Assembly: GCA_046704885.1 (NCBI GenBank)
Contig: JBJKRB010000158.1
Span: 46,400 to 110,399 of the forward strand
DNA: 64,000 nucleotides
Source of the DNA: Thermoanaerobaculia bacterium
GTDB taxonomy: Bacteria > Acidobacteriota > Thermoanaerobaculia > Multivoradales > JBJKRB01
Direction of reading: 5' to 3'
In this document: one piece after another, positions 8,349 through 33,059 of the stretch
Numbering within the stretch: the stretch's first letter is position 1
Layout: each line of letters opens with the position of its first letter
Notes under the pieces: generated by a model
Told to the model about the DNA's origin: nothing
The model's database searches: none
Seen by the model: the letters and a program-made list of their open reading frames with translations, nothing else
Position numbers and translations under genes: made by a program

Positions 8349-8351
8349 GTC

Positions 8352-9083: not shown

Positions 9084-9100
9084 AGGGAAGGAAGACGGCG

Positions 9101-9346: not shown

Positions 9347-9364
9347 GTATAGTTTGCGGCGCGT

Positions 9365-9440: not shown

Positions 9441-9533
9441 CCTCAGGTATCCAGGAGCCACAAACACAAGAGGTTCGACGAAGCTCCTCATGAGGCTCGA
9501 TGAGGTTGAGAGTGCCGACCGAGCCGAACGACT

Positions 9534-9622: not shown

Positions 9623-9672
9623 ATAGCGGCAACGCAACCATTCATCGCTTTCCGCAGCGCAACGAGGATTTC

Positions 9673-10968: not shown

Positions 10969-10992
10969 AGCGGGAAGAGGAGACCAGAAATC

Positions 10993-11574
10993 ATGTTGGT
11001 ACCGATGGTTGTCGAACAGACCAACCGGGGAGAACGCGCTTACGACATCTATTCGCGTCTGCTCAAGGACAACATCATCTTTATCGGGCGGCCGATCGAC
11101 GACGATCTCGCCAGTCTCGTCATCGCCCAGATGCTCTTCCTAGAGGCGGAGAATCCCGAGAAGGATATTGCCTTGTACATCAACTCTCCCGGCGGCGTGA
11201 TCAGCTCGGGTTTCGCGATCTACGACACGATGCAGTACATCAAGCCACAAGTGGCGACCTATTGCGTTGGCATGGCGGCCTCGTTCGCGGCTGTGCTCCT
11301 TGCCGCCGGTGCGCCCGGAAAGCGGTCGGTGCTGCCCAACAGCAGGGTCCTGATTCACCAACCCTGGGTCCAGGGCTTGGGTGGACAACAGACCGACATC
11401 GACATCCACGCCAAGGACCTGCTGCGGATGCGCGACCGCTTGGATGAAATCCTGGCGCAGCATTGCGGCAAGAGCAAAGAGGAGATCCACAGCGACACCG
11501 AGCGCGACCGGATCCTCTCGGCGGAGGAGGCCGTCGAGTACGGAATCGCCGATCAGATCATGCGACGGCGCTGA
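10993..11574 (+). CDS. clpP: ATP-dependent Clp protease proteolytic subunit
   Basis: 193 aa. Ser-His-Asp triad contexts GMAASFAA / LIHQP / ERDRIL. Confidence 0.95.
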
Positions 11575-11637
11575 GGGCAATTTGAGGTTGGCAAAGACGG
11601 ATCTGGTATTATGGCGTTGATTCCGATCATGGTTCGA

Positions 11638-11654
11638 AGGAAGCATTCACCTTC
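11638..11654 (+). terminator. short hairpin (GGAAG-cattcac-CTTCC) followed by a U-containing tract in the 250-nt clpP-clpX spacer; possible attenuator/partial terminator
   Basis: Seen in sequence. Stem only 5 bp, so weak. Confidence 0.3.
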
Positions 11655-11824
11655 CGTCTGTCGCGAACACACTCTCAATGTCCCGTTTCGGAATAGCTGG
11701 CGGAGAACGTCCTGTTTTAGTGAGCGGAGAAAGGACCGAGCATGGGCGGCGGCGCGCCGGAGCGCCATCGTCCGTGGAGTTGGGCCTGACAAGATGATCA
11801 CGCCAGCCAGCGAGCGGAGGAACG

Positions 11825-13060
11825 ATGCCTAAGAAAGAAAGCGGCGACGAAACCCTGCGCTGTTCGTTCTGCAACAAGAGCCAGCGAGAGGTCAAGAAGC
11901 TGATCGCCGGGCCCACGGTCTTCATCTGCGATGAGTGCGTCGACATCTGCCTCGACATCATCGCCGAGGACCGCATGCTCGAGCAGCAACAGGATACGTC
12001 GCTGCCCAAGCCCCGCGAGATCAAGGCCCTCCTTGACGAGTACGTCATCGGTCAGGAGCAGGCCAAGAAGAAGCTCGCCGTCGCTGTCTACAATCACTAC
12101 AAGCGCATCGACTTCGCCGAGCGTTCGCGCAACGAGGTAGAGCTGCAGAAGTCCAACATACTGCTGATCGGTCCCACCGGTACCGGCAAGACGCTCCTCG
12201 CGCAAACTCTCGCCAAGATCCTCTCCGTGCCCTTCACCATCGCTGACGCCACAACGCTGACCGAGGCCGGCTACGTCGGCGAGGACGTGGAGAACATCAT
12301 CCTCAAGCTCTATCAAGCGGCGGGGAACGACAAGGACAAGACGCAGCGGGGTATCGTCTACATCGACGAGATCGACAAGATTTCTCGCAAAGGGGACAAC
12401 CCCTCGATCACCCGAGACGTCTCCGGCGAAGGCGTGCAGCAGGCCCTGCTCAAGATCCTCGAGGGGACCCTGTGCAACGTACCGCCGCAGGGTGGTCGCA
12501 AGCACCCGCATCAGGAATTCCTGCAGATCGACACGACCAACATCCTCTTCATCTGTGGTGGCGCGTTCGTCGGCCTGGAAGAGCAGGTGGAGCGCCGGAT
12601 GAACGAGAAGTCCCTGGGATTCGGAGCCGAGGTCAAGGGGAAGAAGGAGCGCGATACTGGCAAGTTGCTCGAGCACGTCTTGCCCGAGGACCTGATCAAG
12701 TACGGTCTGATCCCCGAGTTCGTGGGGCGTTTGCCCGTCGTGGCCGGTCTGGAGGAGCTCGACGAGGCGGCCCTGATCCAGATTCTCAAGGAGCCCAAGA
12801 ACAGCTTGGTCAAGCAGTACCAGACGATTTTCGAGCTCGAGGACGTTGAGCTCAAGTTCACCGACGAAGCGCTCGCCGCGATCTCGCGAGAGGCGCTCAA
12901 ACGAAACGTCGGAGCTCGAGGTCTGCGCATCATCCTCGAGGAGCTCATGCTCGAGCTCATGTACAACATTCCATCGCAGCGTGATGTCTCCGAGTGCGTC
13001 ATCACTGAGGAAGTGGTCCTCAGCCGGATCGAACCCGTGACCTTGAAGAAGGCCGTTTGA
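11825..13060 (+). CDS. clpX: ATP-dependent Clp protease ATP-binding subunit ClpX
   Basis: 411 aa. N-terminal C4 zinc finger (CSFCNKS...CDEC). Walker A GPTGTGKT. Sensor/IGF-loop region. Confidence 0.97.
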
Positions 13061-13086
13061 TCCCCAGCGCTCGCCGCTAGATACTC

Positions 13087-15504
<2,418 letters not shown>

Positions 15505-15610
15505 GTATTTTTGCCGCTGGGCCTAGCCTCCTCAGCGTCGTTGATCAGCGCCGGCTCCGTTGAGCCTGTGAAGCCAGCACCCCAATTGGGGACATCTAGA
15601 GTCGAGGATC

Positions 15611-16246
15611 GTGTCACGGCCGCCGTCGAGGCGCGCCAGAGCGAATTTGAAAATCGATACTGCCCGCGTGTACCGAACCGCCTTCGAAGCGGCTGATCTG
15701 GTTCAGGACGAGCGTCCTCAGATCGCATTCGTTGGCCGATCGAATGTCGGGAAGTCGAGCTTGCTCAATCGCCTGCTGAGGCAGGACGGGTTGGCGAGAA
15801 CCAGCTCGACGCCGGGTCGGACGCGCTCGATCAACTTTTTTCTGATCGATGAGCGGTTCTTCTTCGTCGACCTTCCCGGTTACGGGTACGCGAAGGTTGG
15901 TAAGGAAGAGAGAAGCAAGTGGGCGAAGCTGATCGACGCCTACTTCACCCGTGCCCTGCCGGAAGCTTTGGTCGTGATGCTCGTCGATGCCAAGGTCGGG
16001 GCCACGCGACTGGACGAGCAAGCGTACGCGTTTTTCCACGACCAGGGGCTCGAACCCGTGATCGTGGCGACAAAGATCGATCGCGTGTCTCGGGGCAAGC
16101 GCATGACGGCAATGAAGCAGCTTCAGACCACCCTGGGTGGCTCGGAGGAGATCAGACCGATTCCGTTTTCGGCGAAGACTGGCGAAGGAGCCCAGAAGTT
16201 GTGGGCAGTGCTTGGCCGCTTTTTGGACGCCGAAAGAACAGCGTAG
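15611..16246 (+). CDS. engB: ribosome biogenesis GTP-binding protein YihA/EngB (YsxC)
   Basis: GRSNVGKSS G1 motif, DLPGYGY G3. Conserved position downstream of lon. Start is GTG at 15611 (alternative in-frame starts possible). Confidence 0.85.
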   Translation: MSRPPSRRARANLKIDTARVYRTAFEAADLVQDERPQIAFVGRSNVGKSSLLNRLLRQDGLARTSSTPGRTRSINFFLIDERFFFVDLPGYGYAKVGKEERSKWAKLIDAYFTRALPEALVVMLVDAKVGATRLDEQAYAFFHDQGLEPVIVATKIDRVSRGKRMTAMKQLQTTLGGSEEIRPIPFSAKTGEGAQKLWAVLGRFLDAERTA

Positions 16247-16264
16247 AAATAGAAGAGGGAAACG

Positions 16265-17557
16265 ATGGCCAAATCGACACAAGACCGTTCTCGTACCAAG
16301 CCTCACAACGGGCTCGACATCCGGACGCTTAAGGACATGCCGAGCTCCGAGCTCACCCAGATCGCGAAGGACCTGGGTGTCGAGGGCGCAACCGCTCTCC
16401 GCAAGCAAGAGTTGATTTTCAAGATCCTGCAGGCGCAAACGGAGAAGAGCGGTCTCATCTTCGCCGAGGGCGTTCTCGAGTGTCTGCCGGATGGCTTCGG
16501 GTTCCTTCGCGCTCCCGAGTACAACTATCTTCCCGGACCGGACGACATCTACGTTTCTCCATCGCAGATACGCCGCTTCGACCTGCGTACCGGCGACACG
16601 GTTTCGGGCCAGGTGCGTCAGCCCAAGGATGGCGAACGCTACTTCGCGCTCATCAAAGTGGAAGCGGTCAACTTCGAGCATCCGGAGGTGGCGCGAAACA
16701 AGATCTTTTTCGACAACCTGACGCCGCTCTATCCGCTCGAGCGCTTGAAGCTCGAGAATCCGGACGACATGTCCTCTCGTGTGCTCGACCTCGTCACCCC
16801 GATGGGCAAAGGGCAGCGCGCTCTGATCGTCGCCCCTCCGCGCACCGGCAAGACCATGTTGCTGCAGACGATCGCGCACTCGGTAGCGAAGAATCATCCC
16901 GAGGTCGCTCTGATCGTGCTGCTGATCGACGAGCGTCCCGAGGAAGTCACCGATATGCAGCGCTCGGTCCAGGGCGAGGTTGTTTCCTCGACCTTCGATG
17001 AGCCGGCCACGCGCCACGTGCAGGTGGCTGAGATGGTGATCGAGAAGGCGAAGCGTCTGGTCGAGCACAAGAAGGACGTGGTGATCCTGCTCGACTCGAT
17101 CACTCGATTGGCGCGGGCTTACAACACGGTACAGCCTCCGTCAGGCAAGGTCCTCTCCGGTGGTATCGACGCCAACGCGCTTCATCGTCCCAAGCGCTTC
17201 TTCGGGGCCGCCCGCAACATCGAAGAGGGCGGGTCGCTGACCATCATCGCAACTGCTCTGGTCGACACCGGAAGCCGGATGGACGACGTCATCTTCGAGG
17301 AGTTCAAGGGAACCGGCAACTGCGAGCTCCATCTTGACCGCAAGCTGGTAGACAAGAGAGTCTTCCCCGCGATCGACCTCAACAAGTCTGGGACCCGGAA
17401 AGAGGAGCTTCTGATGCCGGAGAACGAGCTCCATCGGGTTTGGGTGTTGCGCAAGGTGCTCAATCCTCTATCGACTGTCGAGTCGATGGAGCTCTTGCTG
17501 GACAAGTTGAGGAAAGCGAAGACCAATCTCGATTTTCTCAACGCCATGTCGAAGTAG
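16265..17557 (+). CDS. rho: transcription termination factor Rho
   Basis: 430 aa. N-terminal RNA-binding domain, Walker A (PPRTGKT), Q/R loops. GAAGAGGGAAAC RBS. Confidence 0.97.
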
Positions 17558-17623: not shown

Positions 17624-18433
17624 ATGAATGCCGGCCACAACGATATCGTGCGGGTAGGGGTCGTCGATTTTCTCAACAGCTGGCCACTCGCGTGGTCCTT
17701 CTTCAGAGGCGAGCCGCCGGAGGGCTTCGTGCCGCGTTTCGAGCCGCCGGCGAGAATCGCGGACCTTCTCGCCCGCGGCGAGCTCGACGTCGGGCTGATC
17801 CCCGCGATCGAAGTCCAGAGGATTCCCGACCTGCGAGTCATTCCGGGTCTGTGCATCGGTTCGATCCACGAGGTACGCAGCGTGTTGCTGGTCAGTCGCT
17901 GCCCGCTCGAAGAGGTGCGTCGAATCGCGCTGGACGAGAACAGCCGGACCTCGGCGGCTCTGGTTCGCATCCTCGCGGCCGATGCTTGGTCGCTCGATGC
18001 GGAATTCGTCGCACACCGCGCTGACGTCGGGCGGATGCTGGTGGACGCCGACGCCGCGTTGATCATCGGGGATCCGGCGCTCGCCGTCGACCACGAGCGC
18101 TACCGCGTTCTCGATCTCGCGGCTGAGTGGAGGAAGCTCTCCGGCTATCCTTTTGTCTTTGCGGTCTGGGCGGTGCGGCCTGGCGTCGAGCGCCAGGGGC
18201 TAACCGAGGTCTTTGCCACGAGCTTGCGCGAGGGTCTGAGCGAGCTCGACGGGGTTGTGGAACGGGCCAAGGCGGCGACGGGTCTCAGAGGTGACGTTCT
18301 GCGCCGCTACTTCACTGAAAACCTACACTATCGTCTCGAGGCCGAGCAGCGAGCGGGGCTCGCGGAGTACTTCCGGCGCGCTGCCGCTCGAGGTTTGATC
18401 GCGCGCCAGAGCGACATCCGATACGTTGGCTAG
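17624..18433 (+). CDS. mqnA: menaquinone biosynthesis protein of MqnA/MqnD family (likely chorismate dehydratase MqnA, futalosine pathway)
   Basis: 269 aa. N-terminal [12 protein letters not shown] resembles the MqnA G-x-I-x-YLN-x-xP motif. Periplasmic-binding-like fold family. Confidence 0.7.
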
Positions 18434-18972
18434 GGGCTTTGCCTCTGTGCCTTTGCGGGATCGGCCGGGGCCTTGGGCACGGGGGTCCAGACCGTGGTGC
18501 GGCCGAGCCACGAAAAGCCGATGTAGCCCCGGACGAAGAGGGTCCCGTCCGCTCTCAGGGTAATCTTGCAGCTGTAGGTCTTTCCCTTCTTTGGATCGTA
18601 GATCGTTCCGCCGCTCCAGACGCCATCTCCATCGTAACTAAAACCACGCAGAATCTGGAGGCCGATGATGGGGCGCGCCCGCAGGCTGGCATCGGGGTTG
18701 TTGCGGTCCACCTTCGGCTTCCCGACCCACTGGGGCCCTTCGCTAGCTGGATAGTCTGGTTGGTTCAGCCAAACGATCGTGCCGACGTAGGTGTTCCCCT
18801 CACGGGTTATCTTTACGTGCGCGAAGTCTTGTCCTTCCGGCTGGGTCTTCCACATGCCCAGCAGCCGGTCGGCAGGAGGGGTGGAAGGTGTGGGAGTGCT
18901 CTGCGAGAAGCCGCTCGTGCTCAAGGCGGCCAGGGCGAGAGAGATGAGCAAGGTGGAACGTAGGGTAGGCAT
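18430..18972 (-). CDS. secreted DUF2147-domain protein
   Basis: The track start is GTG 18981. ATG at 18972 gives MPTLRSTLLISLALAALSTSGFSQ signal peptide. DUF2147 pattern (GxWxT ... VxIxxxGNTYxGxIVW ... DxNNPD ... RxRPxxGLxIL ... GGxIYDPxxGKTYxCK). Confidence 0.75.
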   Translation of the reverse strand: MPTLRSTLLISLALAALSTSGFSQSTPTPSTPPADRLLGMWKTQPEGQDFAHVKITREGNTYVGTIVWLNQPDYPASEGPQWVGKPKVDRNNPDASLRARPIIGLQILRGFSYDGDGVWSGGTIYDPKKGKTYSCKITLRADGTLFVRGYIGFSWLGRTTVWTPVPKAPADPAKAQRQSP

Positions 18973-19266
18973 GTTGGACACAGAGACTATCGCAAGAAAC
19001 CGCCTCGAGCCCTCGTCCGTACCTAGAGATATGGAAGCGGATGCGGAACAGTCGCCGTCTCACACTCGCCGATTTGCATGGCGCTGGCCGATCCTTGGAG
19101 TTCTGGCCATTGTTGCCATCGTCGTGGGCTTCTTTCTGCAGATTGCGTCGGGGAGCTGTCCCGTTCCTTGAGTAGAGTGTCAAGCACGGGAGGGGCCCCG
19201 CCTCGTCGCGGGAAGGAAGCAGAGGCGCATGGAGGGTGGCTTGGGTGGTTTGGATAGACTGCCCGG

Positions 19267-21105
19267 ATGGGAGAATCGGATGCCTCTCCGGCCGGGGTCG
19301 AGCCCAGTAGATCTCGCCGGGGAGCCCTGATCTATGTCTTCATTGCGGCCCTGGTCGGCAAGCTCGCGTTTGTGGGTTGGGCCTTGCGACCGCGAGACCT
19401 GGTGCAGACCTATCCCTTCATGTTGGGCGATTCTCAGGACTGGGTCGCTTCGGGGCTGGCTCTAGCCGGCTTCCATGTACAAGACTCGGTTCGGCCTCCA
19501 GGTCTGCCTTTGTTGCTGGCTGCCCTCGACAAGGTCGGTGCCCTCACCGCTTTCCCGATCGTTCAGCAGGTTCTTCTGGCGGCCGCTGCGTGTCTCTTGT
19601 TCTTCCTGCTTCGAAAGCGTGCCGGATTGGAGCCGGCGTTCTTCGCTGCCGCGCTGCTCCTCCTTTCTTCCCTGCCCTTCACGCTCTCGCTCCCCGTCCA
19701 CGCGGATTCGCTCAGCGGCGTCTTGTTGCTGGCGGCTGTGAGCACGTTTCTCTATGCTCGTCGCTTCCCTTATGCCTACCTCCTTGCGGGTTTGATCGGC
19801 GCCCTGGCGGCCCTCACGCAGGGAGCCGCGTTTCTAGCGGCGCCAGCAGCGGCGTTGGTGCTCTTGGTCCGGCGTCGTCAGGACCTTCGGAATGTCTGGC
19901 TATTGGCGGGCGTAGTGATCTTCGGGTCCGGCGTAGCCGCGTGGTCTGTGATCAAGCTCATCAGGTACGGCACCGCAGGTGACGTGGTGACTCGGCATTG
20001 GAGCCTGTTGGGACTCCACCCGCAGAACCTGATTTTCTACGCTGCGGCCCTCCTTGCCATTCTGGGGCTTCCGGGCTTGCTCGTTGGACTCAAGGGGGCC
20101 GTCGCGATGAGCCGGCGCCGCGGCGAAGATGATCTGCTCGTGCTGGGCACAGTTGTGATGGTCCTTGGTTTTCTTGCGCTCGTGTACGGTTGGACGGCTG
20201 AACGCTTTCTTCTCGTAGTTCTTCCCCTTCTCGCTTGGGTCGTGGCGATGGGGCTAGCCACTCTTGGACGCAGGTCGCAAACGCTCTTCGGCGTCCTCAT
20301 CCTCGTGTTTGCCTTCCTGCCTCTCCCGGTTGCCAGCCCGCCCGTTTGGAGACTGTGGCCGTTTCCCAGCATTACGATTCAAGGGTTCGGGCGAGTGGTC
20401 CCCGCCGAGGGCCTGAGACAGGAGTGGATGCGGGGCCCTTGGGAGAGCATCTACCGAACGGCGGCGAATGAGCGGAGACATCCGGGAATCGATCGAGCGC
20501 TCTTCGCCGGCGCACCTTCCCGGGGCGTTTTGCTTTTCGCCCGAGGCGCCTACTCGAGGCCGAGCTATTTGGAGAGCAAGAGACTGGGCAATATTCTTCG
20601 GCGGCGGTTCACACCGGTACCGGCTGGGCTCTATCCCCTCGGGTGGTGGGGCTGGAGCTGGTCCCGTCGCCTTTCGCCCGTTGGTAGGTGGTGCGTCTTG
20701 GAACTCGATCTCCCTGCGCTGCCGGCGATTCTCGCACTTACCGAAGGCGGGGTATGCAATCACTCTGGATCGCCGAGAGTGCCGCCCGGGAGCTACGGTC
20801 GGTGGATCGCCGAATTCAGGGAGATTGCGAAGGAGGTGGGGCCTGGCGATCCCTTCATCGCTGTCGTTGGTTCGGAGCGAAGCGACTGGGTACGTCTCGC
20901 GCCACTGGCTCTCGAAAGCGCGAACTTGGTCGTTGTCGCCCCCGCCCGCCTACCAAAGTCACTCAACGTGGAAGGAAAGGAGGCGTCTTTCGGTGACTTC
21001 GCTCTAGCTCGCGGTGAAGCGGTGGGCCGCCCCGTCTGGGTCCTGCGGCGGAAGAGTGGGGCGCGGCCCGCTGATTATCAGAGATCAATTCACGACGAAA
21101 GGTAG
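19267..21105 (+). CDS. polytopic membrane protein, GT-C-like glycosyltransferase candidate (ArnT/PMT/arabinofuranosyltransferase-like) with C-terminal soluble domain
   Basis: 612 aa. About 11 predicted TM helices in the first ~350 aa. Acidic first-loop motif GDSQDW after TM1. Roughly 260-aa hydrophilic C-terminal domain. 9 nt upstream of the DprE1 homolog. Confidence 0.55.
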   Translation: MGESDASPAGVEPSRSRRGALIYVFIAALVGKLAFVGWALRPRDLVQTYPFMLGDSQDWVASGLALAGFHVQDSVRPPGLPLLLAALDKVGALTAFPIVQQVLLAAAACLLFFLLRKRAGLEPAFFAAALLLLSSLPFTLSLPVHADSLSGVLLLAAVSTFLYARRFPYAYLLAGLIGALAALTQGAAFLAAPAAALVLLVRRRQDLRNVWLLAGVVIFGSGVAAWSVIKLIRYGTAGDVVTRHWSLLGLHPQNLIFYAAALLAILGLPGLLVGLKGAVAMSRRRGEDDLLVLGTVVMVLGFLALVYGWTAERFLLVVLPLLAWVVAMGLATLGRRSQTLFGVLILVFAFLPLPVASPPVWRLWPFPSITIQGFGRVVPAEGLRQEWMRGPWESIYRTAANERRHPGIDRALFAGAPSRGVLLFARGAYSRPSYLESKRLGNILRRRFTPVPAGLYPLGWWGWSWSRRLSPVGRWCVLELDLPALPAILALTEGGVCNHSGSPRVPPGSYGRWIAEFREIAKEVGPGDPFIAVVGSERSDWVRLAPLALESANLVVVAPARLPKSLNVEGKEASFGDFALARGEAVGRPVWVLRRKSGARPADYQRSIHDER

Positions 21106-21114
21106 ACTCTGCGC

Positions 21115-22443
21115 ATGCGGCGTGACTCGGAGCAGCTCTCAGGGTGGGGAGGGATCTCGGTTCCCGGAAGGGAGATCCTTTCCGAGGATCTCTCGAGCGC
21201 CGCCGCCGGACAGCCGCTGACGCGTGGGCTCGGGCGAGCTTACGGCGACGCCGCGCTTCCGCCGCCGAAGGTGGGAAGCGTGGCGGGCTCGAGGCTGGCC
21301 GACCGCATTCTGGCTCTGGATCCAGAGAGCGGAGCCCTGCGCGCCGAGGCCGGACTCTCACTGCGGGAGATGGTCACGATGTTGCTGCCTCGCGGCTGGT
21401 TTGTCCCGGTGACGCCGGGGACCCAGTTCGTCACCCTAGGTGGGATGGTGGCGGCCGACGTGCACGGCAAGAATCATCACGTGAGCGGAACGATCGGGCG
21501 CCACGTCAACTCCTTGACCCTGCGCCTCGCCGGCGGTGAAATCGTACGCTGCTCGCGGGAGGGGCGCTCCGACTTGTTTCGGGCCACCCTGGGCGGCATG
21601 GGATTGACCGGCCATATCCTCGAGGTCGGGCTGACCTTGGAAAAGATCGAAACTCCATGGATCTATGGCGAGAGCGAGCGCTTCGGCGATCTGTCCGAGT
21701 TGCTCGCGGCGCTCGAGGCTGCGAGCGGCGAGTGGCCTTTCACCGCCGTTTGGGCGGATCTCATGGCGCCTGCCAGACGTCTGGGCCGCGGAATCCTCTT
21801 CCGAGGGCGCTGGGCCCGCTCCGCGGAAGCGCCGGCCGCAGCGCCGCGCCCGAAGCGCGTCTTCGAGGTTCCCGTGACCGCTCCGAATTGGCTGCTTGCG
21901 TCCCCCTTGGTCCGCGGTTTCAACCTAGCGACGTATCGCAAGCACGTTCCTCGCCGTAAGTCCGGGATCATTCATCCCGAGGCCTTCTTTTATCCACTCG
22001 ATTCTGTAGGCCACTGGAATCGCTTGTACGGCAAGCGCGGCTTCACGCAGTATCAGTGCGTTCTGCCCGCGGAGGCGGGTCGAGAAGGGGCCAAGGAGTT
22101 TCTTGCCGAGCTCAAGCGCCTGGGAGGTCGCTGCTTCTTGGCTGTGATCAAAGACTGTGGTGCCGAGGGAGAAGGAGTTCTCTCGTTCCCCCGCCCGGGA
22201 ATCTCGCTGGCTCTCGATCTCCCGGTCGACCGCCACACCCAGGAGCTCGTCGATCGTCTCAACGAGCGATTGCTCCACTATGGCGGCCGCATCTATTTGG
22301 CCAAGGACGCCTTCACCCGGGAGAGCCATTTCCGGAAAATGGAGCCGCGTCTCGAACGCTTTACCGAAATTCGGCGCAAGTTCGATCCCGAGGCGCGGCT
22401 GAGGAGCGCCCTCTCTGTGCGACTCTTTGGGGACGCGGCGTGA
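21115..22443 (+). CDS. FAD-dependent oxidoreductase of the DprE1 (decaprenylphosphoryl-beta-D-ribose 2'-oxidase) family
   Basis: 442 aa. LSGWGG, RGLGRAYGD, PGTQFVTLGGMVAADVHGKNHH, FFYPLDSVGHWNRLYGKRGFTQYQCVLP and GGRIYLAKD all align with M. tuberculosis DprE1 (Rv3790) signature blocks. Confidence 0.85.
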   Translation: MRRDSEQLSGWGGISVPGREILSEDLSSAAAGQPLTRGLGRAYGDAALPPPKVGSVAGSRLADRILALDPESGALRAEAGLSLREMVTMLLPRGWFVPVTPGTQFVTLGGMVAADVHGKNHHVSGTIGRHVNSLTLRLAGGEIVRCSREGRSDLFRATLGGMGLTGHILEVGLTLEKIETPWIYGESERFGDLSELLAALEAASGEWPFTAVWADLMAPARRLGRGILFRGRWARSAEAPAAAPRPKRVFEVPVTAPNWLLASPLVRGFNLATYRKHVPRRKSGIIHPEAFFYPLDSVGHWNRLYGKRGFTQYQCVLPAEAGREGAKEFLAELKRLGGRCFLAVIKDCGAEGEGVLSFPRPGISLALDLPVDRHTQELVDRLNERLLHYGGRIYLAKDAFTRESHFRKMEPRLERFTEIRRKFDPEARLRSALSVRLFGDAA

Positions 22444-23186
22444 GGGCGGCGATTCTGGGAGCGACGAAGGGAATCGGGCGTGCCGTGGCGCGCCGTCTGG
22501 CGGAGCGCGGCGACGCGCTCGTTCTGCTCGGGCGCGACCCCGACGACCTCGAACGCAGCGCCCGCGATCTCGAGGTGCGCGGCGACCGCGACGAGACGCG
22601 CACCGTGAGCACCGTGCGCTGCGACCTCGAGGATCGCGCGACGATCGCTCCGGCTTTGGACGCCGCGGTTCGAGAGCTGGGCGGCCTCGACCTGGTGTTG
22701 GTCACGGCTGGGGCCTTTGGGACGCAGGAAGATCTCGAGAACGACGTCTCGCAGGCCGAGCGGGTCCTCGACACAAACTTTACGGCTACCGTGCTCTTCC
22801 TCGAAGAGGCGCGCAAGCGTCTGCTAGCGGCGGGCGGCGGGACGCTCTGCGCCGTGAGCTCGGTGGCGGGGGAGCGCGGGCGCAAGCCGGTGATTCTCTA
22901 CGGTGCGAGCAAGGCGGGGCTCACCCGCTATCTCGAAGGGCTCGACCACAAGTTCCGGCGCCTCGGACTCAAGGTCGTGACCGTAAAGCCGGGATTCGTT
23001 CGGACCGGGATGACCGCCGGTCTTCCGGCTCCCCCCTTTGCCGGCGATCCCGAGGGAGTCGCGCGCGACATCGTGCGAGCGATCGATCGCGGTCGACCGG
23101 TGGTCTATACACCATGGCCTTGGCGCTACCTGATGTGGATCGTCCGCCGTCTGCCGCGGGCGGTCATGCGCCGCCTCTCCTTCTAG
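22440..23186 (+). CDS. short-chain dehydrogenase/reductase of the DprE2 (decaprenylphosphoryl-2-keto-ribose reductase) family
   Basis: GTG start at 22440 (GTGA overlap with the DprE1-like stop). 248 aa. AILGATKGIGRAVA Rossmann motif, SSVAGERGRKPVILYGASKAGL (YxxxK), C-terminal TPWPWRYLMWIVRRLPRAVMRRL matching the Rv3791 C-terminus. Confidence 0.85.
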   Translation: MRAAILGATKGIGRAVARRLAERGDALVLLGRDPDDLERSARDLEVRGDRDETRTVSTVRCDLEDRATIAPALDAAVRELGGLDLVLVTAGAFGTQEDLENDVSQAERVLDTNFTATVLFLEEARKRLLAAGGGTLCAVSSVAGERGRKPVILYGASKAGLTRYLEGLDHKFRRLGLKVVTVKPGFVRTGMTAGLPAPPFAGDPEGVARDIVRAIDRGRPVVYTPWPWRYLMWIVRRLPRAVMRRLSF

Positions 23187-23332
23187 TGTCGCCAAGAGAC
23201 ATTGTTTGTGCCAGGGGAGGAGTCGCCCCCGTGCGGCTAGCGCTCTTACCGGCAGATTCCTTCGGACGCAACCAGGCGCGAACGATTTCCGTAAGAGTTG
23301 ACAGCGCTCGATTCCGTGAAAGGAAGGTGAGA

Positions 23333-23830
23333 ATGCGGAAAGCTGCCGCCATACTTGTCGTCCTCATCGCCGCGGGGACGCTGCCGGTCGCCGGCACGGC
23401 GTCTTGCGCTGCGGCTCAGTACCACCAGTTCGATTTCTGGCTCGGGCACTGGAACGTCACCGGTAAACAAGACAAACCGGTGGGCATCGACACGGTCGTG
23501 AGCGAGGTGGGCGGGTGTGCGCTCATCGAAACGTGGAAGGGGAAAGGAGGGGGTTCCGGTGTGAGCCTCAACTACTACGACCCCGCGGACCGAATGTGGC
23601 ATCAGGAGTGGGTGGGTACGAGTGCTCGGCTCCACCTCAAGGGTGGCCTCGAGGGAAATAGGATGGTCTTAGTGGGCGGTTCCCGGTCGACACCGAAGGG
23701 AACGATCGAGGACCGCATCACCTGGGAGCCGAGAGCGGATGGTTCGGTTCTCCAGGTCTGGTGGGTGTCGAGCGATCAAGGAAAGAGCTGGAAGGTGCTC
23801 TTCTCGGGGACCTACCGTAAGGCAGAGTGA
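23333..23830 (+). CDS. small secreted/lipo-protein of unknown function (165 aa)
   Basis: GGAAGGTGAGA RBS then ATG 23333. Signal peptide MRKAAAILVVLIAAGTLPVAGTASC. W/G-rich beta-type mature part (FDFWLGHWNV...). Last gene of the GT-C/DprE1/DprE2 cluster. Confidence 0.55.
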   Translation: MRKAAAILVVLIAAGTLPVAGTASCAAAQYHQFDFWLGHWNVTGKQDKPVGIDTVVSEVGGCALIETWKGKGGGSGVSLNYYDPADRMWHQEWVGTSARLHLKGGLEGNRMVLVGGSRSTPKGTIEDRITWEPRADGSVLQVWWVSSDQGKSWKVLFSGTYRKAE

Positions 23831-23851
23831 GGAAGAGGGGGAAGAGTGGAT

Positions 23852-23886
23852 CGAGCCGGCTCCAGGGATAGCCCAGAGCCGGCTCG
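23852..23886. terminator. bidirectional stem-loop: 11-bp perfect stem CGAGCCGGCTC / GAGCCGGCTCG with 13-nt loop between convergent genes
   Basis: Seen in sequence. No clear U-tract on either side, so it may act as a Rho-independent-like or processing/stability hairpin. Confidence 0.45.
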
Positions 23887-23919
23887 AAGAGTCAGCATCT
23901 TCTGACGTTCGCGTCGGTT

Positions 23920-25476
23920 CTACACGTCGAACTCGACACCTTGCGCCAAGGGTAGCTCGGTGCCCCAGTTGATCGTGTTGGTCTGGCGGCGCATGTACGC
24001 CTTCCAGGCGTCAGAGCCGGCCTCGCGGCCGCCTCCCGTGTCCTTCTCACCACCGAAGGCGCCACCGATCTCGGCCCCCGAGGTGCCGATATTGACGTTG
24101 GCGATGCCGCAGTCACTACCCGTCGCCGAGAGGAAGCGCTCGGCGCTGCGCAGGTTGAGAGTGAAGATGGCGGACGACAGCCCCTGTGGCACACCGTTGT
24201 GGAGCGCGATCGCCTCGTCGAGGTTTTCGAACTCGAGCAGGTAGAGAATCGGGGCGAACGTCTCCTCGCAGGTAATGGGGAGCAGCGACGGCATGTCGAC
24301 CAGGGTCGGCTCGACGAAGAATCCGGGACCGTCGAGCGAATGGCCACCGTAGAGAACCTTCCCGCCCTGCTGATGGGCTTGATCCAAGGCCTTCATCATG
24401 TCTTCGACCGCCCCGTGGTCGATGAGCGGTCCCATCAAGGTCGAGGAGTCGAGAGGATCCCCGATGCGCACCGAGCCATAGGCCTCCACCAAGCGGCGTT
24501 TCATGTCGGCCGCGATTCCTTTCTGCAGGATCAGGCGGCGAGTCGTGGTACAGCGCTGCCCGGCGGTTCCGACCGCGGCGAACAGCACGGCACGTAGCGC
24601 CAGGTCGAGATCGGCGTCGTCCATGACTACGATCGCGTTGTTTCCTCCTAGCTCGAGCAGGGAACGACCGAGGCGGGCAGCGATCTCCTGTCCGATCGAC
24701 TGGCCCATGCGCACCGATCCGGTGGCGGAAATCAGCGGCAACCTGGGATCGGCGACGAGCGGCCGCCCGACCTGCGAGGAGTTGCCGACCAGAAGATTGA
24801 AGACCGGGGGCGCGTCATTTTCCTCCAGGACTCGCTGGGCGATGCGCGTAACCGCGATGGCCGTGAGCGGCGTCTTGCTCGATGGTTTCCAGATCATCGT
24901 GTCGCCGCAGACGGCCGCGACCGTGGCGTTCCATGCCCAAACGGCGACGGGGAAGTTGAACGCGGTGATGATCCCGATGGGCCCCAAGGGATGCCACTGC
25001 TCATACATGCGATGGTTGGGCCGTTCGGAATGCATGGTGAGGCCGAACAGCTGGCGGGAGAGTCCGACCGCGAGATCCGCCATGTCGATCATCTCCTGCA
25101 CCTCGCCGAGCCCTTCGGAGAGGATCTTGCCGGTCTCCAGAGTCACCAGACGTCCGAGCTCCTCCTTGTGCCGCCGTAGCTCGAGACCGAGTTGACGGAC
25201 GATCTCTCCGCGCCTGGGGGCCGGCCACAATCTCCATTCGTCGAAACCCGCCGCCGCCGCCGCTACCACGGAGTTGTACTCTTCGCGCGTTGCCGTCTTG
25301 ATGCTGGCTAGAGCCTCGCCGGTGCTGGGATCGACCGAGGAAAGGACGGGGCCGGTGCCCTTCAGCCACGAACCATTGAAGGCGCCCGGATTCTCTCCCG
25401 CGACGCCTAGCGCCTCGAGGATCTCCTGGCTCCGTTGTCTGTCTTTTGAAGTCATGGAACTCATTTGACTCTCCAT
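23920..25476 (-). CDS. pcd: ALDH7-family aldehyde dehydrogenase (alpha-aminoadipic semialdehyde / piperideine-6-carboxylate dehydrogenase)
   Basis: Start set to the internal ATG 25476 (AGGA 10 nt upstream; MESQMSSMTSKDRQ...). Motifs: FNFP, ELGGNNA, GTAGQRCTTTRR (catalytic Cys), EETFAPIL. Overall ALDH7A1-like length (518 aa) and sequence. Confidence 0.82.
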   Translation of the reverse strand: MESQMSSMTSKDRQRSQEILEALGVAGENPGAFNGSWLKGTGPVLSSVDPSTGEALASIKTATREEYNSVVAAAAAGFDEWRLWPAPRRGEIVRQLGLELRRHKEELGRLVTLETGKILSEGLGEVQEMIDMADLAVGLSRQLFGLTMHSERPNHRMYEQWHPLGPIGIITAFNFPVAVWAWNATVAAVCGDTMIWKPSSKTPLTAIAVTRIAQRVLEENDAPPVFNLLVGNSSQVGRPLVADPRLPLISATGSVRMGQSIGQEIAARLGRSLLELGGNNAIVVMDDADLDLALRAVLFAAVGTAGQRCTTTRRLILQKGIAADMKRRLVEAYGSVRIGDPLDSSTLMGPLIDHGAVEDMMKALDQAHQQGGKVLYGGHSLDGPGFFVEPTLVDMPSLLPITCEETFAPILYLLEFENLDEAIALHNGVPQGLSSAIFTLNLRSAERFLSATGSDCGIANVNIGTSGAEIGGAFGGEKDTGGGREAGSDAWKAYMRRQTNTINWGTELPLAQGVEFDV

Positions 25477-25587
25477 AGTGTTCGTCCTGGCCTGCGAACG
25501 CAGCGCCGCGACTGGATAGGGAACTGGCGACGGATGGTTCGCCAGGAATTCGGCTAAAGGATATCGCACGCGAGCTAAGATCGCGCG

Positions 25588-27540
25588 GTGCGAGCCCTTG
25601 CTCCTTCAGTCCTTCTCCTCGTCTTCGCCTTCGCGTGCGGCACGCTGGTAGGTGGAACGGGAGGGGTGACGACGCTGGTCGGCCACGCACTCATTCTCGC
25701 CTTCGCCGCGTGGGGCGCCTACGCTTGGCGGGATCCCCTCAGACTGGGCCGGAAATTAGCGTGGCTCGCCTGGGCGCCTCTAGCGATCGCCTTGCTCTCC
25801 GATCTGGTGTCGCCGGTTTCCCGTGCCGGCTGGACGGGGCTGGCTTTGGCCCCCGCGTTTCTCTTTCTTCCCGCGGCGGTCGACCGCTGCTGGCGCGAGG
25901 GCGAGGCCAGAGTCGGGGCAACCGGCGTTGCGCTCACGGTCCTCGCCGTGAGCTCATGGGCGCTCGTTACGTTGTTCTCGAAGGGGTTGTCGCGAGCCGC
26001 GCTGCCTCTCGGACATCACAACTTGTTGGCGGCTTTCTTGGTTCCGCTGCTCCCACTGGCCGCGGCAATCCTCGTCGAGCGTGACTGGCGGCGGTGGTTT
26101 GGGCTCCTAGCCGTGGTGCTCGGCGTGACCGCAATTCTTGCCACTCGGTCGCTTGACGCCGCTGCGGCGCTAGTGGTCGAGTCGATCGCCATCGGCGTGC
26201 TCTGGAAGCGGGCGCGCCCCTGGGCCCTGGCCACGGTCGTATTGGCCGCTCTCGTGGCGCTGCCCCGCGTCCCGCGGGTACTTGCCGGCTCGGACCCCTC
26301 GCTCCAGGCTCGGGCCACCTATGCCGAAGCTGGATTGGATGGGATCGCTCTTCGCCCTCTCCTGGGTTGGGGGCCGGGATCGGTTCCATGGACGGTAAGC
26401 ATGAACCTGAAGCCGCGATTGGGCGTCAATCCCGCGAGCCAGGTGATCGGCGATCTTCACTCGCTTCCCCTCCAGTGGACGTACGAGACCGGCCTTGCCG
26501 GACTAGCTGCTTTGCTTGCGCTTGGTTGGTTCTTTGCCCGAGCCCGCAGGCGCGAAGGTCCTTCTGGCGCAAGCGACTTCGAGCGCCGGTGCGTGCTGGT
26601 GGGGGCGGCCGGGCTTCTCGTCGTGACGCTCAGCAACTCCCAGGTCGAGGTCGTTGCCTTGCCGCTGATGGCCGCGGTCCTCGTCGGGGTGTGGATGGCC
26701 GAGGGCTCGGATCGCGAATGGCGGGAGCTGAGACAAACGAGCAAGTGGCGCTGGGGCTTGCTTCTCCTAGTGGTGGGCGCCCTGGCCCTCCTTCCCATGG
26801 ACTTGGCTCACCTCTCCTATGATTGGGCGCACCGTAGCGTTGGCGACACCCAGGTGCGCCGGTTGGCGTGGGCAACCCACCTAGATCCGCGCTTCCCCCT
26901 CTATCGATTTCGCTTGGCGTTGGCGCTGGAGAGGAGCCAGCCTCAGCAGGCGGCAAAGGAGGCGCTGGCCGCGGCGACTCGGGCGCGCGGCGTTGCGCCT
27001 TTGTGGCTCGAAGCTGGGCTCCTCGCTCGCAAGGCAGGCCTCGCGAGTGGGACCGAAGCGCTGGTCGCCGCCTGTCGACTCGATCGCCTTGCACCTCTTC
27101 CTCCCTTCTTCGCCGCGTTGAGCTCCCCGGACGACCGGCGCGGGGCGGAGCTGTTGGCGCATGCTCTCGCCCTCGAGCCTCGTTTGGCGGCGGCCATGGC
27201 TCTCGACAACCGGGGCTCGCTCATTGACGCGGCGCGCGCGCGAATCTTGGAAACGCGACAGCTGCCACTCCGCTGGAGGATCGACCTCGAGCGTTCGGTG
27301 GCCCTGGCGCGCAGCCAGCGCTCGGACGCGCGCTCCGCGCATCTCGTCTTGGATGCCGATCAGGAGTCCTATCTCTCCTTTTCCGTCTACGCCTTCCGTC
27401 GAAGCCCTTGGCCGGCCCGTCTCGCGTCGGTGATTTTGCGGCGATCCGGGGTCGACGTCATGAGCTCGGTGCCGCGGCTCGACGCTCTGCCGGGCTTGCC
27501 GCGATCCCTCGGTCGAGCGCTATCTTGCGGTAGCGATTGA
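25588..27540 (+). CDS. O-antigen ligase (Wzy_C/RfaL) family membrane protein fused to C-terminal TPR-like helical repeats
   Basis: GTG start. About 10 TM helices. Wzy_C periplasmic-loop signature (GHHNLLAAFL ... HSLPLQWTYETGLAGL). C-terminal ~250 aa Ala/Leu-rich helical repeats. Confidence 0.65.
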   Translation: MRALAPSVLLLVFAFACGTLVGGTGGVTTLVGHALILAFAAWGAYAWRDPLRLGRKLAWLAWAPLAIALLSDLVSPVSRAGWTGLALAPAFLFLPAAVDRCWREGEARVGATGVALTVLAVSSWALVTLFSKGLSRAALPLGHHNLLAAFLVPLLPLAAAILVERDWRRWFGLLAVVLGVTAILATRSLDAAAALVVESIAIGVLWKRARPWALATVVLAALVALPRVPRVLAGSDPSLQARATYAEAGLDGIALRPLLGWGPGSVPWTVSMNLKPRLGVNPASQVIGDLHSLPLQWTYETGLAGLAALLALGWFFARARRREGPSGASDFERRCVLVGAAGLLVVTLSNSQVEVVALPLMAAVLVGVWMAEGSDREWRELRQTSKWRWGLLLLVVGALALLPMDLAHLSYDWAHRSVGDTQVRRLAWATHLDPRFPLYRFRLALALERSQPQQAAKEALAAATRARGVAPLWLEAGLLARKAGLASGTEALVAACRLDRLAPLPPFFAALSSPDDRRGAELLAHALALEPRLAAAMALDNRGSLIDAARARILETRQLPLRWRIDLERSVALARSQRSDARSAHLVLDADQESYLSFSVYAFRRSPWPARLASVILRRSGVDVMSSVPRLDALPGLPRSLGRALSCGSD

Positions 27541-30438: not shown

Positions 30439-32235
30439 TCATGCGAGGCGACGGAGTAGCTTCCGGGAGCGCTGCACGAGCTCGGTACCGAGCTCATCGG
30501 AGGCGGAGAGCTGCGGCGCGTAGCGAAGAAAGTGCAGGTCCTCAGCGAGTTGCGAGAGCTCGTTGGTGGTTTCGGCTTCCACCCCCCGCCTTCTCAGGAG
30601 AGCTCCCCAACGAGCGCTGGGCGTGCCCATCGGTACCGCCCACTTCTCGTCGAGAAATTCGCGCCACAGCTCATCGAGGGCGTTGGCGGTCCTTCGCGGT
30701 GAGGCGCCAAGGGTGATGCCGGAGATGCGCCCGAGGTAGCGCTGAGCGATCTCGCTCTGCTGCGGATTGCGCCGCCCCCAATTGTGACGCCCAAGGATGG
30801 CGACGGCCCCCGCCGCGACGAGAAGACCGACGATCAATCCACCCCATTCCCAGGGATGCGCCCAAAGAGCACCCATCACTCCTCGCCGAGGCTGCGCGCT
30901 CCCCTCGTTCGGACCGCTGACCGTTGGGCGAGTAGGCGCCGGAGCGGGTGGCGGTGCGGGGACCGCGGTCAACTCGAGCGCTGGGGTCGTGGCCTTGGCA
31001 TAGGAGGCGGTCTGAGGGTCGAAGTAGGGAATCGTGACGGGCGGCAACGTCCAGTGCGCGCTCTTTTGAGGCACCAAGACGTAGGTCCAGGTGGCGCTCT
31101 CTCGAACCCGGGTGCCGATCAACTTGGTGTTGCTCTCGCTCTGGGGCGCAAAGCTCTCGAGACCCGGCAGGTTGGGCAGGGAAGGGGCGGAAAGGCCCTG
31201 CACATGGCCGAAACCGGCCAGAGTCAGGGTCAGGGTCGCGGCGTCTCCCACCTTGATCTGGCGGGGGGTGAGTGAGGCGTGGATCGACAGCGCCCCGACC
31301 GCCCCGTTGAAATCGGCGGGTGGTGCTGGCAACGCCCGTACCGAGATGGAAAGCGGCTGAACCTGCCGCCGAACCTCGACCGTTCTCTCGAAGAGCCCCC
31401 CAAAGCCTCCTTCCCCGGGAACGCTCAAGGTCAACCGGGCCTTGGCAGCCCCGATGGTCAGGGCACCTGAGTGAAGTGGGAAGAGCGCTCTCTGGAGCAG
31501 CACGACTCTCCCGAATTGCTGCCCGTGCACGGCCACCATGTCGGGCTGCAGGTGAGTTGGTTGCGGAATCTCCTTGACCCAGAAGCCGTGAAAGTCGGGG
31601 ATCTCTTGGGGATCGATATTGTCGACGTCACCCTGGGTATACAGGTAGAGGGTGTAGAGCACCTGTTGTCCGACATAAGGGTTTTGCGGATTGGCTACGG
31701 CTTGGAGGAACACACCGGGCATCGTTTGCGGCGGAGAGGCGGGGGCCGCGAACGGTGAGCTCGGAGCTGAGAAAGGCTGCATCAAAGCGCCGAAAGGCGA
31801 GAGGCTCTGATTTTGCGCCGCCCCCGGATGAAGAGTTGCGGTGTTCTCCACATCGATGGTCTGGTCGGGGATCTCGATCTGGCGGCCGCGGGCCTTGACG
31901 ACGATGCTCTTGACCCGCGCCGGACCCGGATGCAAGGGGTGAAGCTGCCACGTCAAGCTGATGCTGCGCGAGGTGAACCCGTTGACGAAGCGAACTTGAT
32001 CCGAGCGAAACGGCCCCGCCACCGCCTCGAGGTTGTCGAGCTTGAAACCCGGGTGCAGGTCGATTCCCCCGAATCCCTGAGCTCGCGCGGTGATGGTGAA
32101 GGTGACGAGCTCATTGAGCCCGATCCGCGTCGGACTGATCTGAGCGTTGACCTGGACGGATGGCGCGCTCCACGCCGCCAGGCTCGAGGCGACGGCGACC
32201 ACTACGGCAATGGAAAGGGCTCGCGGCCACCTCAC
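30439..32235 (-). CDS. batD: BatD-family protein (Bacteroides aerotolerance operon protein D homolog)
   Basis: 598 aa. GTG start overlapping the batC stop (GTGA). Signal peptide, large beta-rich periplasmic region, C-terminal TM segment (WGGLIVGLLVAAGAVAILG). Position after batC. Confidence 0.75.
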   Translation of the reverse strand: MRWPRALSIAVVVAVASSLAAWSAPSVQVNAQISPTRIGLNELVTFTITARAQGFGGIDLHPGFKLDNLEAVAGPFRSDQVRFVNGFTSRSISLTWQLHPLHPGPARVKSIVVKARGRQIEIPDQTIDVENTATLHPGAAQNQSLSPFGALMQPFSAPSSPFAAPASPPQTMPGVFLQAVANPQNPYVGQQVLYTLYLYTQGDVDNIDPQEIPDFHGFWVKEIPQPTHLQPDMVAVHGQQFGRVVLLQRALFPLHSGALTIGAAKARLTLSVPGEGGFGGLFERTVEVRRQVQPLSISVRALPAPPADFNGAVGALSIHASLTPRQIKVGDAATLTLTLAGFGHVQGLSAPSLPNLPGLESFAPQSESNTKLIGTRVRESATWTYVLVPQKSAHWTLPPVTIPYFDPQTASYAKATTPALELTAVPAPPPAPAPTRPTVSGPNEGSAQPRRGVMGALWAHPWEWGGLIVGLLVAAGAVAILGRHNWGRRNPQQSEIAQRYLGRISGITLGASPRRTANALDELWREFLDEKWAVPMGTPSARWGALLRRRGVEAETTNELSQLAEDLHFLRYAPQLSASDELGTELVQRSRKLLRRLA

Positions 32236-33059
32236 CAGTCCTTCTCCGTTGACGACCGGCGCTCAGCCCGCTTGAGAGCGGCCTCGCGACGCTGTTGACG
32301 CTCGAGGTTCTCTACCGCATTGAGGATGGCGGCCGCTTGCGCGGCGCTCATGTTCGGCTGGTCTTTGAACTGGGGAAGAACTGACCCGTGCTTCGGAGCG
32401 TTCTTCAGCGCCTTCGGTTCGCCGGTTGCCGCCTGGCGCTTCCCGGACGCCTGGCTCTGCGCCTCGCGTGGAGCCTTTCGCTCCGGAGGGCGCTGAGCTC
32501 CGGTGGAGCGTCCTTGCTCCCTGCCGCCCGGTTTTTGCTGCTGGCTCGCTTCCTTCTGCTCCCGGCGGCGCTCTTCCTTGCGCTGCTTCTCGAGCTGGCG
32601 CAGGGCGAGCTCCAGGTTGTACTTAGCGTCGGGTTGATGAGGATCGGCGAGCAGGCTCTTCTCGAAAGCCGAGACCGCGCCAGCCGGGTTCCCGGAGGCC
32701 AGCAGAGCGTTGCCCAAGTTGTACTCAGCCTCGGGCAGCAACCTGGGAGGCGCCTTTCCAGATGCCTTCTCGAGGAGCTGGGCGGCTCCGAGTCCATCCT
32801 TCGCAACGAGATGCGCGGTGCCCGAGTTGTAGAGAACAGCAGGGTCTTTCGGCGCCAGTCGTTGGGCGCTGTCGAAGTCGCGAACGGCGGATTTGACGTC
32901 GCCCTTGTCGAGTGCGTCGAGACCCCGATCGGTGCGCTCACGCGGGTTGTAGAGCCAGCGCTCCACGGCGCGGGGCCAGTGCAGGAAGCTGTCGACAGCC
33001 TGGCGTAGCGGGAGGCTTGCGGGGAGGAGGAGCAGGGCGGCCAGAACGATCGCTTTCAT
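32232..33059 (-). CDS. batC: BatC-like TPR-repeat protein
   Basis: Start set to ATG 33059 (MKAIVLAALLLLPAS signal peptide; ATGA overlap with the batB stop). TPR repeats. K/E/R-rich C-terminal tail. Confidence 0.7.
   Translation of the reverse strand: MKAIVLAALLLLPASLPLRQAVDSFLHWPRAVERWLYNPRERTDRGLDALDKGDVKSAVRDFDSAQRLAPKDPAVLYNSGTAHLVAKDGLGAAQLLEKASGKAPPRLLPEAEYNLGNALLASGNPAGAVSAFEKSLLADPHQPDAKYNLELALRQLEKQRKEERRREQKEASQQQKPGGREQGRSTGAQRPPERKAPREAQSQASGKRQAATGEPKALKNAPKHGSVLPQFKDQPNMSAAQAAAILNAVENLERQQRREAALKRAERRSSTEKDW

Follow-up and report, generated by a model that had tools for sequence, protein, structure and literature searches.

The decaprenyl-phospho-arabinose pathway of mycobacteria consists of Rv3806c, Rv3807c, DprE1/DprE2, Rv3789 and the Emb/Aft GT-C transferases. 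Here we analysed a 64,000-nt stretch of one acidobacterial contig (the window), in which the gene of a 612-aa membrane protein lies directly upstream of genes for homologues of DprE1 and DprE2. An earlier note, made from the sequence alone, had proposed that this cluster makes a polyprenyl-phosphate-linked pentofuranose and transfers it to a periplasmic acceptor. Outside the actinobacteria, D-arabinofuranose (D-Araf) from DprE1/DprE2 homologues is used for pilin glycosylation by the GT-C enzyme TfpW in Pseudomonas aeruginosa (bioRxiv 10.1101/2020.04.19.049825), and rhizobial Nod-factor arabinosylation by noeCHOP also employs DprE1/DprE2 homologues (PMC5080398). Kelly et al. (2024) described a widespread pathway of synthase, flippase and GT-C, in which DprE1/DprE2 homologues are found wherever Araf is added (PMC11127046). 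The host of the window is an uncultured soil-type, Thermoanaerobaculia-like Gram-negative acidobacterium. Its three genes may form an operon in which the DprE1/DprE2 homologues make polyprenyl-phospho-D-Araf and the GT-C protein transfers Araf to a periplasmic acceptor, a reading that we find quite possible and hold tentatively.

A membrane protein gene beside a DprE1/DprE2 pair

Translation of the open reading frames (ORFs) confirmed four genes on the + strand between 19267 and 23830. Their coordinates, the 9-nt gap, the GTGA overlap and all motifs quoted in the earlier note were present in the sequence. The features are as follows.

19267..21105, + strand: 612-aa polytopic membrane protein of GT-C fold, with about 11 transmembrane (TM) helices, a conserved Asp55 and a C-terminal domain
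21106..21114, + strand: 9-nt spacer ACTCTGCGC between the stop of the GT-C gene and the start of the DprE1-homologue gene
21115..22443, + strand: DprE1 homologue, 442 aa, by homology a flavin adenine dinucleotide (FAD)-dependent polyprenyl-phospho-ribofuranose 2'-oxidase
22440..23186, + strand: DprE2 homologue, 248 aa, GTG start, by homology a short-chain dehydrogenase/reductase (SDR) acting as 2'-keto reductase
23333..23830, + strand: 165-aa secreted beta-barrel protein, adjacent to the cluster; its membership of the system is unsupported

The GT-C ORF ends with TAG at 21103-21105, followed by ACTCTGCGC and the ATG of the DprE1-homologue gene at 21115. The DprE2-homologue gene starts with a GTG at 22440 and shares 4 nt (GTGA) with the end of the DprE1-homologue gene, whose TGA stop occupies 22441-22443. 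Because of the 9-nt gap and the 4-nt overlap, a single transcript is expected for the three genes. A promoter and terminator scan of 18400-25700 was uninformative, with 0 promoters and 1 terminator at chance level. The 9-nt spacer was identical in the relative L085, whose overall DNA identity to the window is only about 76%, and this identity suggests constrained co-expression of the GT-C and DprE1-homologue genes.

The locus resembles the mycobacterial pathway in having an adjacent FAD oxidase and SDR pair with the same catalytic residues, and a transferase of GT-C fold encoded next to it. It differs in that no synthase, phosphatase or flippase is encoded nearby, the residue corresponding to Cys387 is Ala, the host is Gram-negative, and the region is a housekeeping one rather than a cell-wall cluster. 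With the O-antigen three-component systems of Kelly et al. (GT136; PMC11127046) the locus shares the logic of a lipid-linked pentofuranose, an optional epimerase and an ~11-TM GT-C with an extra periplasmic C-terminal domain, whereas the defining synthase, the MATE flippase and a surrounding O-antigen cluster are missing from the window. The pilin system of P. aeruginosa Pa5196/PA7 (PsPA7_6245-6249 plus TfpW) likewise combines DprE1/DprE2 homologues in a Gram-negative host with a GT-C of similar size (TfpW, 646 aa, 11 TM, large periplasmic C-terminus), and there too the transferase and sugar genes can be unlinked. However, TfpW carries a TPR C-terminal domain and is encoded next to pilA, whereas the C-terminal domain of the window protein is mixed alpha/beta without TPR and no pilin gene lies nearby. 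The Pseudomonas biosynthetic cluster also includes a synthase, a phosphatase and a GtrA-like protein, which the window cluster lacks. ArnT (GT83, the undecaprenyl-phospho-4-amino-4-deoxy-L-arabinose:lipid A transferase) is only 13-15% identical to the window GT-C, which has no arn genes near it and a different, larger C-terminal domain. Overall, the window cluster holds two of the five functions of such a system (synthase, phosphatase, epimerase, flippase and GT-C).

Identity and distribution of the epimerase pair

To NCBIfam model NF053785 the oxidase matched over its full length (E = 1.8e-105, 353.7 bits), with the next model at 2.6e-14. In the PDB, the mycobacterial DprE1 structures (M. smegmatis and M. 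tuberculosis) matched it with E values of 5e-75 to 4e-70, against 5e-6 for the next flavoenzyme family. The oxidase is therefore a DprE1 homologue and not another member of the vanillyl-alcohol oxidase family, as had been predicted. It is 36% identical to M. smegmatis DprE1 and misses the NCBI equivalog cut-off for DprE1 (353.7 versus 500 bits), a cut-off that appears to be tuned to actinobacterial sequences. Its translation contained every one of the blocks RGLGRAYGD, GGMVAADVHGKNHH, FFYPLD...WNRLYG...FTQYQCVLP and GGRIYLAKD. The catalytic and substrate-site residues H132, K134, Q334, Q336 and K418 (M. tuberculosis numbering) are all kept in the window enzyme and were invariant in 80-81 of the 81 DprE1 homologues aligned. 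Asn385 is replaced by Ser, and all aligned non-mycobacterial homologues have Ser or Thr at this position. Cys387, the covalent benzothiazinone site, is Ala in the window enzyme and in 76 of the 81 homologues; this position bears on drug sensitivity and is no criterion for DprE1 family membership. The earlier note had proposed benzothiazinone sensitivity as a check on condition that the active-site Cys is present; with Ala at this position, the enzyme should not be sensitive.

The 248-aa SDR matched the DprE2 model NF053786 (E = 2.8e-49) with 168 bits, short of the 250 required. The generic SDR model PRK07102 outscored it with 233 bits, yet stayed under its own cut-off of 267. M. tuberculosis DprE2 was the sole PDB match below 1e-20 (2e-34), covering residues 4-246 of 248 and taking in the C-terminal membrane-associated helix, and the DprE2-like C-terminus TPWPWRYLMWIVRRLPRAVMRRL was found in the SDR. 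This sole strong match bears out its assignment as a DprE2 homologue. Together the two homologues very probably constitute a lipid-linked ribose 2'-epimerase, and we infer polyprenyl-phospho-ribose to be its substrate.

The distribution of the pair was examined in a species scan with one genome per species. Relatives of the oxidase were found in at least 599 species, including Acidobacteriota, Myxococcota, Bacteroidota, Planctomycetota, Cyanobacteriota, Chlorobiota, Verrucomicrobiota and Bradyrhizobium, and 80 loci were kept for neighbourhood analysis. Among the matches listed, the best (57-60% identity) came from Thermoanaerobaculia and Vicinamibacterales. By tblastn, from which the adjacency counts were taken, a DprE2 homologue was encoded beside the DprE1 homologue at about 70 of these 80 other-species loci. 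Because such pairs are common across phyla, nearly all with Ala at the Cys387 position, the presence of DprE1/DprE2 by itself is unremarkable. The emphasis formerly laid on an occurrence outside the mycolata does not hold in view of this spread, and the concept had already been published.

In a neighbour-joining tree, the window oxidase belonged to a large clade of Acidobacteriota and Myxococcota. There it stood nearest to the DprE1 homologue of locus L008, which is also its closest homologue (60% identity) and is encoded in a UbiA-DprE1-DprE2 operon. The L008 UbiA exceeded the NCBI cut-off for decaprenyl-phosphate phosphoribosyltransferase (285.5 versus 234 bits), as did that of L046. Because the nearest neighbour has this operon, the same chemistry (lipid-linked ribose to arabinose) is supported for the window pair. 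UbiA-family genes lay near the DprE1 homologue in 22 of the 80 loci, and NCBI models call their products decaprenyl-phosphate phosphoribosyltransferases. Large polytopic membrane proteins were likewise encoded near the pair in 22 of the 80 other-species loci, including the PMT_2 GT-C of L017. The two kinds of partner were distributed as follows.

Window's own DprE1 clade, 43 loci: UbiA within 5 kb in 4, large polytopic protein within 5 kb in 7
More distant DprE1 group, 37 loci: UbiA within 5 kb in 18, large polytopic protein within 5 kb in 15

In the window's own clade, the pair therefore stands mostly without such partners. With the L008 enzyme as query, more than 5390 phosphoribosyltransferase homologues were found at E ≤ 1e-30; they are common in environmental bacteria, and those named as such by NCBI include proteins of Vicinamibacterales, Aminicenantes and Methylomirabilota.

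The neighbourhoods of other DprE1 homologues showed further arrangements. In L017, from a Polyangiales metagenome-assembled genome, a 552-aa PMT_2 GT-C (12964-14622, 61.5 bits) lies two genes past the DprE1-DprE2 pair on the same strand, and a second DprE2-related SDR comes next; the locus is an independent linkage of GT-C and epimerase with a different GT-C family. The Bacteroidota loci L057, L060, L061, L067, L071, L077 and L080 (about 7000-12700) share a conserved set of UbiA phosphoribosyltransferase, DprE1, DprE2 and HAD-IB phosphatase, to which all except L061 and L067 add a divergent 540-600-aa polytopic membrane protein of no Pfam family. From its gene content, this cluster looks like a complete candidate Araf system in which the HAD phosphatase replaces PAP2. 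In L014, an acidobacterial metagenome-assembled genome, the DprE1-homologue gene (9854-11311) follows rho, and tblastn at E ≤ 1e-5 found no DprE2 homologue in 21 kb; tblastn likewise found none at the DprE1 loci L027, L038 and L047. At such loci the oxidase either acts alone or depends on a reductase gene at another site.

The 612-aa protein and its possible coupling to the pair

Sequence searches placed the 612-aa protein only marginally. Pfam gave a PMT_2 match just above the cut-off (28.9 versus 26.1 bits), a single-sequence PDB search matched no solved structure, and a profile search of the PDB returned only PIG-M (E = 0.0035). An exhaustive HMMER search collected 219 cluster representatives of the family at E ≤ 1e-3, 48 of them at E ≤ 1e-30, and this family of about 220 representatives has no CAZy-type assignment past the marginal PMT_2. 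A 62-sequence alignment revealed near-invariant Y49, P50, F51, G54, D55, W59, D147, Q185 and R204; D55, within the motif YPFxxGDSxDW (GDSQDW in the window), was kept in at least 90% of the 62 members.

The AlphaFold model built from this alignment (predicted local distance difference test score (pLDDT) 90.9, predicted template modelling score (pTM) 0.91) contained about 11 TM helices. The loop that follows TM1 carries two short helices, and the periplasmic C-terminal domain (about residues 355-600) is of mixed alpha/beta structure and belongs to no recognised family. In the model, D55 sits between TM1 (residues 15-39) and the helix 56-66, in the first extracytoplasmic loop. The protein thus shows the polytopic membrane domain of the GT-C fold, with juxtamembrane helices in its first outside loop, as well as the conserved acidic residue that GT-C glycosyltransferases have in this loop. 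All of the top 18 Foldseek matches in the PDB were GT-C enzymes, among them AglB, ALG9, ArnT, STT3, EmbC, ALG3 and PimE. Fold-comparison figures were highest for ALG12 (22.8), ArnT (22.7), AglB (21.0) and Pmt4 (20.0), lower for the arabinofuranosyltransferases AftB (16.3), AftD (15.8), AftA (15.4) and EmbA (9.6), and 7.5 for the best non-GT-C fold. The GT-C architecture predicted for this protein, with its ~11 TM helices, the GDSQDW loop after TM1 and the C-terminal domain, was upheld by the model and by Foldseek, and the protein is highly likely to be a GT-C glycosyltransferase. Its family is uncharacterised, and a relation of the window protein to GT136, Emb, Aft or TfpW is not demonstrable.

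In the proposed mechanism, the DprE1 homologue (FAD oxidase) and the DprE2 homologue (NAD(P)H-dependent SDR) would invert C2' of polyprenyl-phosphate-linked beta-D-ribofuranose by way of a 2'-keto intermediate. Polyprenyl-phospho-D-arabinofuranose, the resulting product, would form at the cytoplasmic face of the membrane and be flipped to the periplasmic side, where the 612-aa GT-C would arabinosylate an acceptor by means of its conserved Asp55 loop and periplasmic C-terminal domain. Genes for a lipid-ribose synthase, a 5'-phosphatase and a flippase would lie elsewhere in the genome. The data directly support the identity of the epimerase subunits with intact catalytic residues, the GT-C fold, and the tight and conserved spacing. 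A periplasmic acceptor and the consumption of the epimerase product by the GT-C are inferred; the latter step, taken by itself, is a possibility that we hold with reserve.

Several results weigh against this coupling. The order mqnA, DUF2147, GT-C, DprE1, DprE2 was kept in L085, a locus from another metagenome with 75-77% protein and 76% DNA identity, and contigs of the same or related samples run on into the 165-aa protein, an aldehyde dehydrogenase and a Wzy_C protein. However, the linkage of GT-C and pair was seen only in relatives of 75-81% identity (L085 and L086), and synteny at this distance carries little weight. Beyond these relatives the gene order that the earlier note expected to be conserved, and with it any conserved linkage of the GT-C to donor-synthesis genes, broke down. 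A functional link between the two is weakened because of this. None of five distant members of the GT-C family (29-34% identity) lay beside a DprE1/DprE2 pair; their neighbours were EamA transporters, hydrolases, MFS transporters, a methyltransferase and a radical-SAM enzyme. A metagenome scan with a degenerate DNA motif for YPFxxGDSxDW yielded 63 loci, of which only 25 were recognisably related to the GT-C, and a DprE1 homologue was near none of these 25, a weak negative given the many short contigs. Conversely, the GT-C family profile found no member in any of the 80 DprE1 loci. In the acidobacterial loci L011, L013 and L014, the order is tig-clpP-clpX-lon-engB-rho-DprE1, with the oxidase gene directly after rho and no GT-C. 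They share this block with the window (9673-17557, Rho 89-91% identical), where mqnA, DUF2147 and the GT-C gene separate rho from the DprE1 homologue. From this order it follows that the epimerase pair is an ancestral resident and the GT-C a lineage-specific neighbour; the pair looks ancestral and independent at this site, to judge from gene order, and looks like a core-genome resident in that part of the Acidobacteriota. Partner genes were also missing from the window. Neither tblastn with 22 neighbours of DprE1 homologues nor Pfam on all large ORFs found a UbiA-type synthase in the 64 kb, tblastn with the UbiA and HAD neighbours of other DprE1 loci returned nothing, and Pfam on the large ORFs found no PAP2 or HAD phosphatase and no GtrA, SMR or MATE flippase. 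Finally, a closest-relative comparison with the Araf transferases (Emb, AftA, AftB, AftD, TfpW) gave no relationship in sequence or closest fold, and the structure does not point to the donor sugar, the model being nearer to ArnT, ALG and PMT enzymes than to arabinofuranosyltransferases. What ties the GT-C to the epimerase is solely the close packing of their genes, seen in a single narrow lineage.

These results bear on two other explanations. The adjacency may be incidental: an ancestral, self-contained DprE1/DprE2 module would feed a transferase encoded elsewhere, and the GT-C would be an unrelated ArnT/PMT-like enzyme using another polyprenyl-phosphate sugar (a hexose or aminoarabinose), placed upstream by the local rearrangement that brought mqnA and DUF2147. 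The rho-DprE1(-DprE2) order without GT-C in sister acidobacteria, the usually solitary pair in the window's clade, with few polytopic or UbiA neighbours (7/43 and 4/43), the absence of DprE1/DprE2 near distant GT-C relatives (0/5 and 0/25) together with the empty reverse profile search, the PMT_2 assignment by Pfam, and the best structural matches to ArnT, ALG12 and PMT, which use non-furanose donors, all speak for it. Against it stands the 9-nt spacer, which is too short for a promoter and, being identical in L085 at 76% DNA identity, implies co-transcription; genes transcribed together usually share a function. Nor does a GtrB/ArnC-type GT2 lie beside the GT-C, the single GT2 of the window being 23 kb off and of the TIGR04283 family. 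We regard incidental adjacency as possible and somewhat doubtful. It is improbable that the pairs of the Acidobacteriota/Myxococcota clade act on another substrate (another lipid-linked or soluble sugar, or a polyol), so that the cluster makes no arabinofuranose. The scores below both equivalog cut-offs, the merely 36% identity to M. smegmatis DprE1, the Ser/Thr at position 385 in all non-mycobacterial homologues and the lack of an adjacent phosphoribosyltransferase in most clade members would fit such a change. However, all catalytic residues are retained, the DprE2 match is full-length and includes the membrane-associated helix, and four members of the same clade, the nearest homologue included, adjoin a phosphoribosyltransferase. 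Moreover, studied homologues at a similar distance yield D-Araf, P. aeruginosa DprE1 sharing 33% identity with its M. tuberculosis counterpart (bioRxiv 10.1101/2020.04.19.049825).

The proposal of a polyprenyl-phosphate-pentofuranose operon thus stands in part: the identity of the epimerase and the GT-C fold were borne out, whereas the GT-C/epimerase link is confined to a narrow lineage and the upstream enzymes are absent from the window. An operon for envelope arabinosylation is thus a plausible but unproven reading, and operons of this kind are already known from other Gram-negative bacteria.

Surrounding genes and significance

The 165-aa gene starts 146 nt past the DprE2-homologue gene and has its own AGGAAGG ribosome-binding site. 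A search of 5.8 billion proteins brought up just 4 homologues of its product, each from a Thermoanaerobaculia-type source, and two Cys residues of the protein are invariant. An AF2 model (pLDDT 81.6, good in one of five models) showed a 10-stranded calycin/nitrobindin-like barrel, and Foldseek matched it to OssO (1.4e-4), THAP4 nitrobindin and fatty-acid-binding proteins. The protein was never found beside DprE1/DprE2 in other species (80 DprE1 loci), and nothing links it to glycosylation. With its 146-nt gap and own ribosome-binding site, its earlier inclusion in the system finds no real support, and we rejected it as a member since no association is conserved outside close relatives.

Further downstream, a 650-aa Wzy_C protein (O-antigen ligase/polymerase-like) is encoded at 25588-27540 on the + strand, its C-terminal 250 residues without a Pfam family. 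It had been described as an O-antigen-ligase/TPR fusion supporting an envelope-glycan role. Pfam found no TPR in it even at E ≤ 5, and between it and the cluster lies an oppositely oriented aldehyde dehydrogenase gene, so that it lends no such support; its position after the aldehyde dehydrogenase is kept in the relatives L089 and L090. The only other glycosyltransferase in the window is a 229-aa GT2 (44351-45040, - strand) between rsmB and moaC, which passes the NCBI cut-off for TIGR04283 ('arsenosugar biosynthesis glycosyltransferase'; 231 versus 182 bits).

By Pfam, the rest of the 64 kb is housekeeping: trigger factor, ClpP/X, Lon, Rho, ribonucleotide reductase, MoaA/C and a Bat/MoxR operon, as well as KsgA, FtsK, Fmt, RsmB, Ddl, PurB, arginine deiminase genes, FolD and RpsB. 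The Bat/MoxR-type operon (30439-37990, - strand) is complete, with a MoxR AAA ATPase, DUF58, a BatD-like protein, BatA (VWA), BatB (VWA), a TPR protein and BatD. On the + strand, 53385-56646 holds an arginine deiminase pathway set, made up of genes for the deiminase itself, ornithine carbamoyltransferase and a carbamate-kinase-type amino acid kinase. In a 507-aa ORF (59601-61124, - strand) the FolD domains start only at residue 206, and in a 636-aa ORF (48104-50014, + strand) the D-2-hydroxyacid dehydrogenase domain starts at about residue 97; either the N-termini of these proteins are extended or the ORFs were called from a start codon too far upstream.

Acidobacteriota are abundant in soil, and to our knowledge almost nothing is known about their surface and envelope chemistry. 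We consider it unlikely, as a wider proposal, that the 612-aa protein represents a GT-C family that is new, distinct in sequence and recruited in Thermoanaerobaculia as a D-arabinofuranosyltransferase, giving a core-genome, DprE1/DprE2-dependent envelope arabinosylation in Acidobacteriota. If the coupling is true, the protein would be the first candidate arabinofuranosyltransferase in Acidobacteriota and the locus would give a first indication that envelope glycans of this phylum contain D-arabinofuranose, and a new GT-C family would join the lipid-linked pentofuranose transferases.

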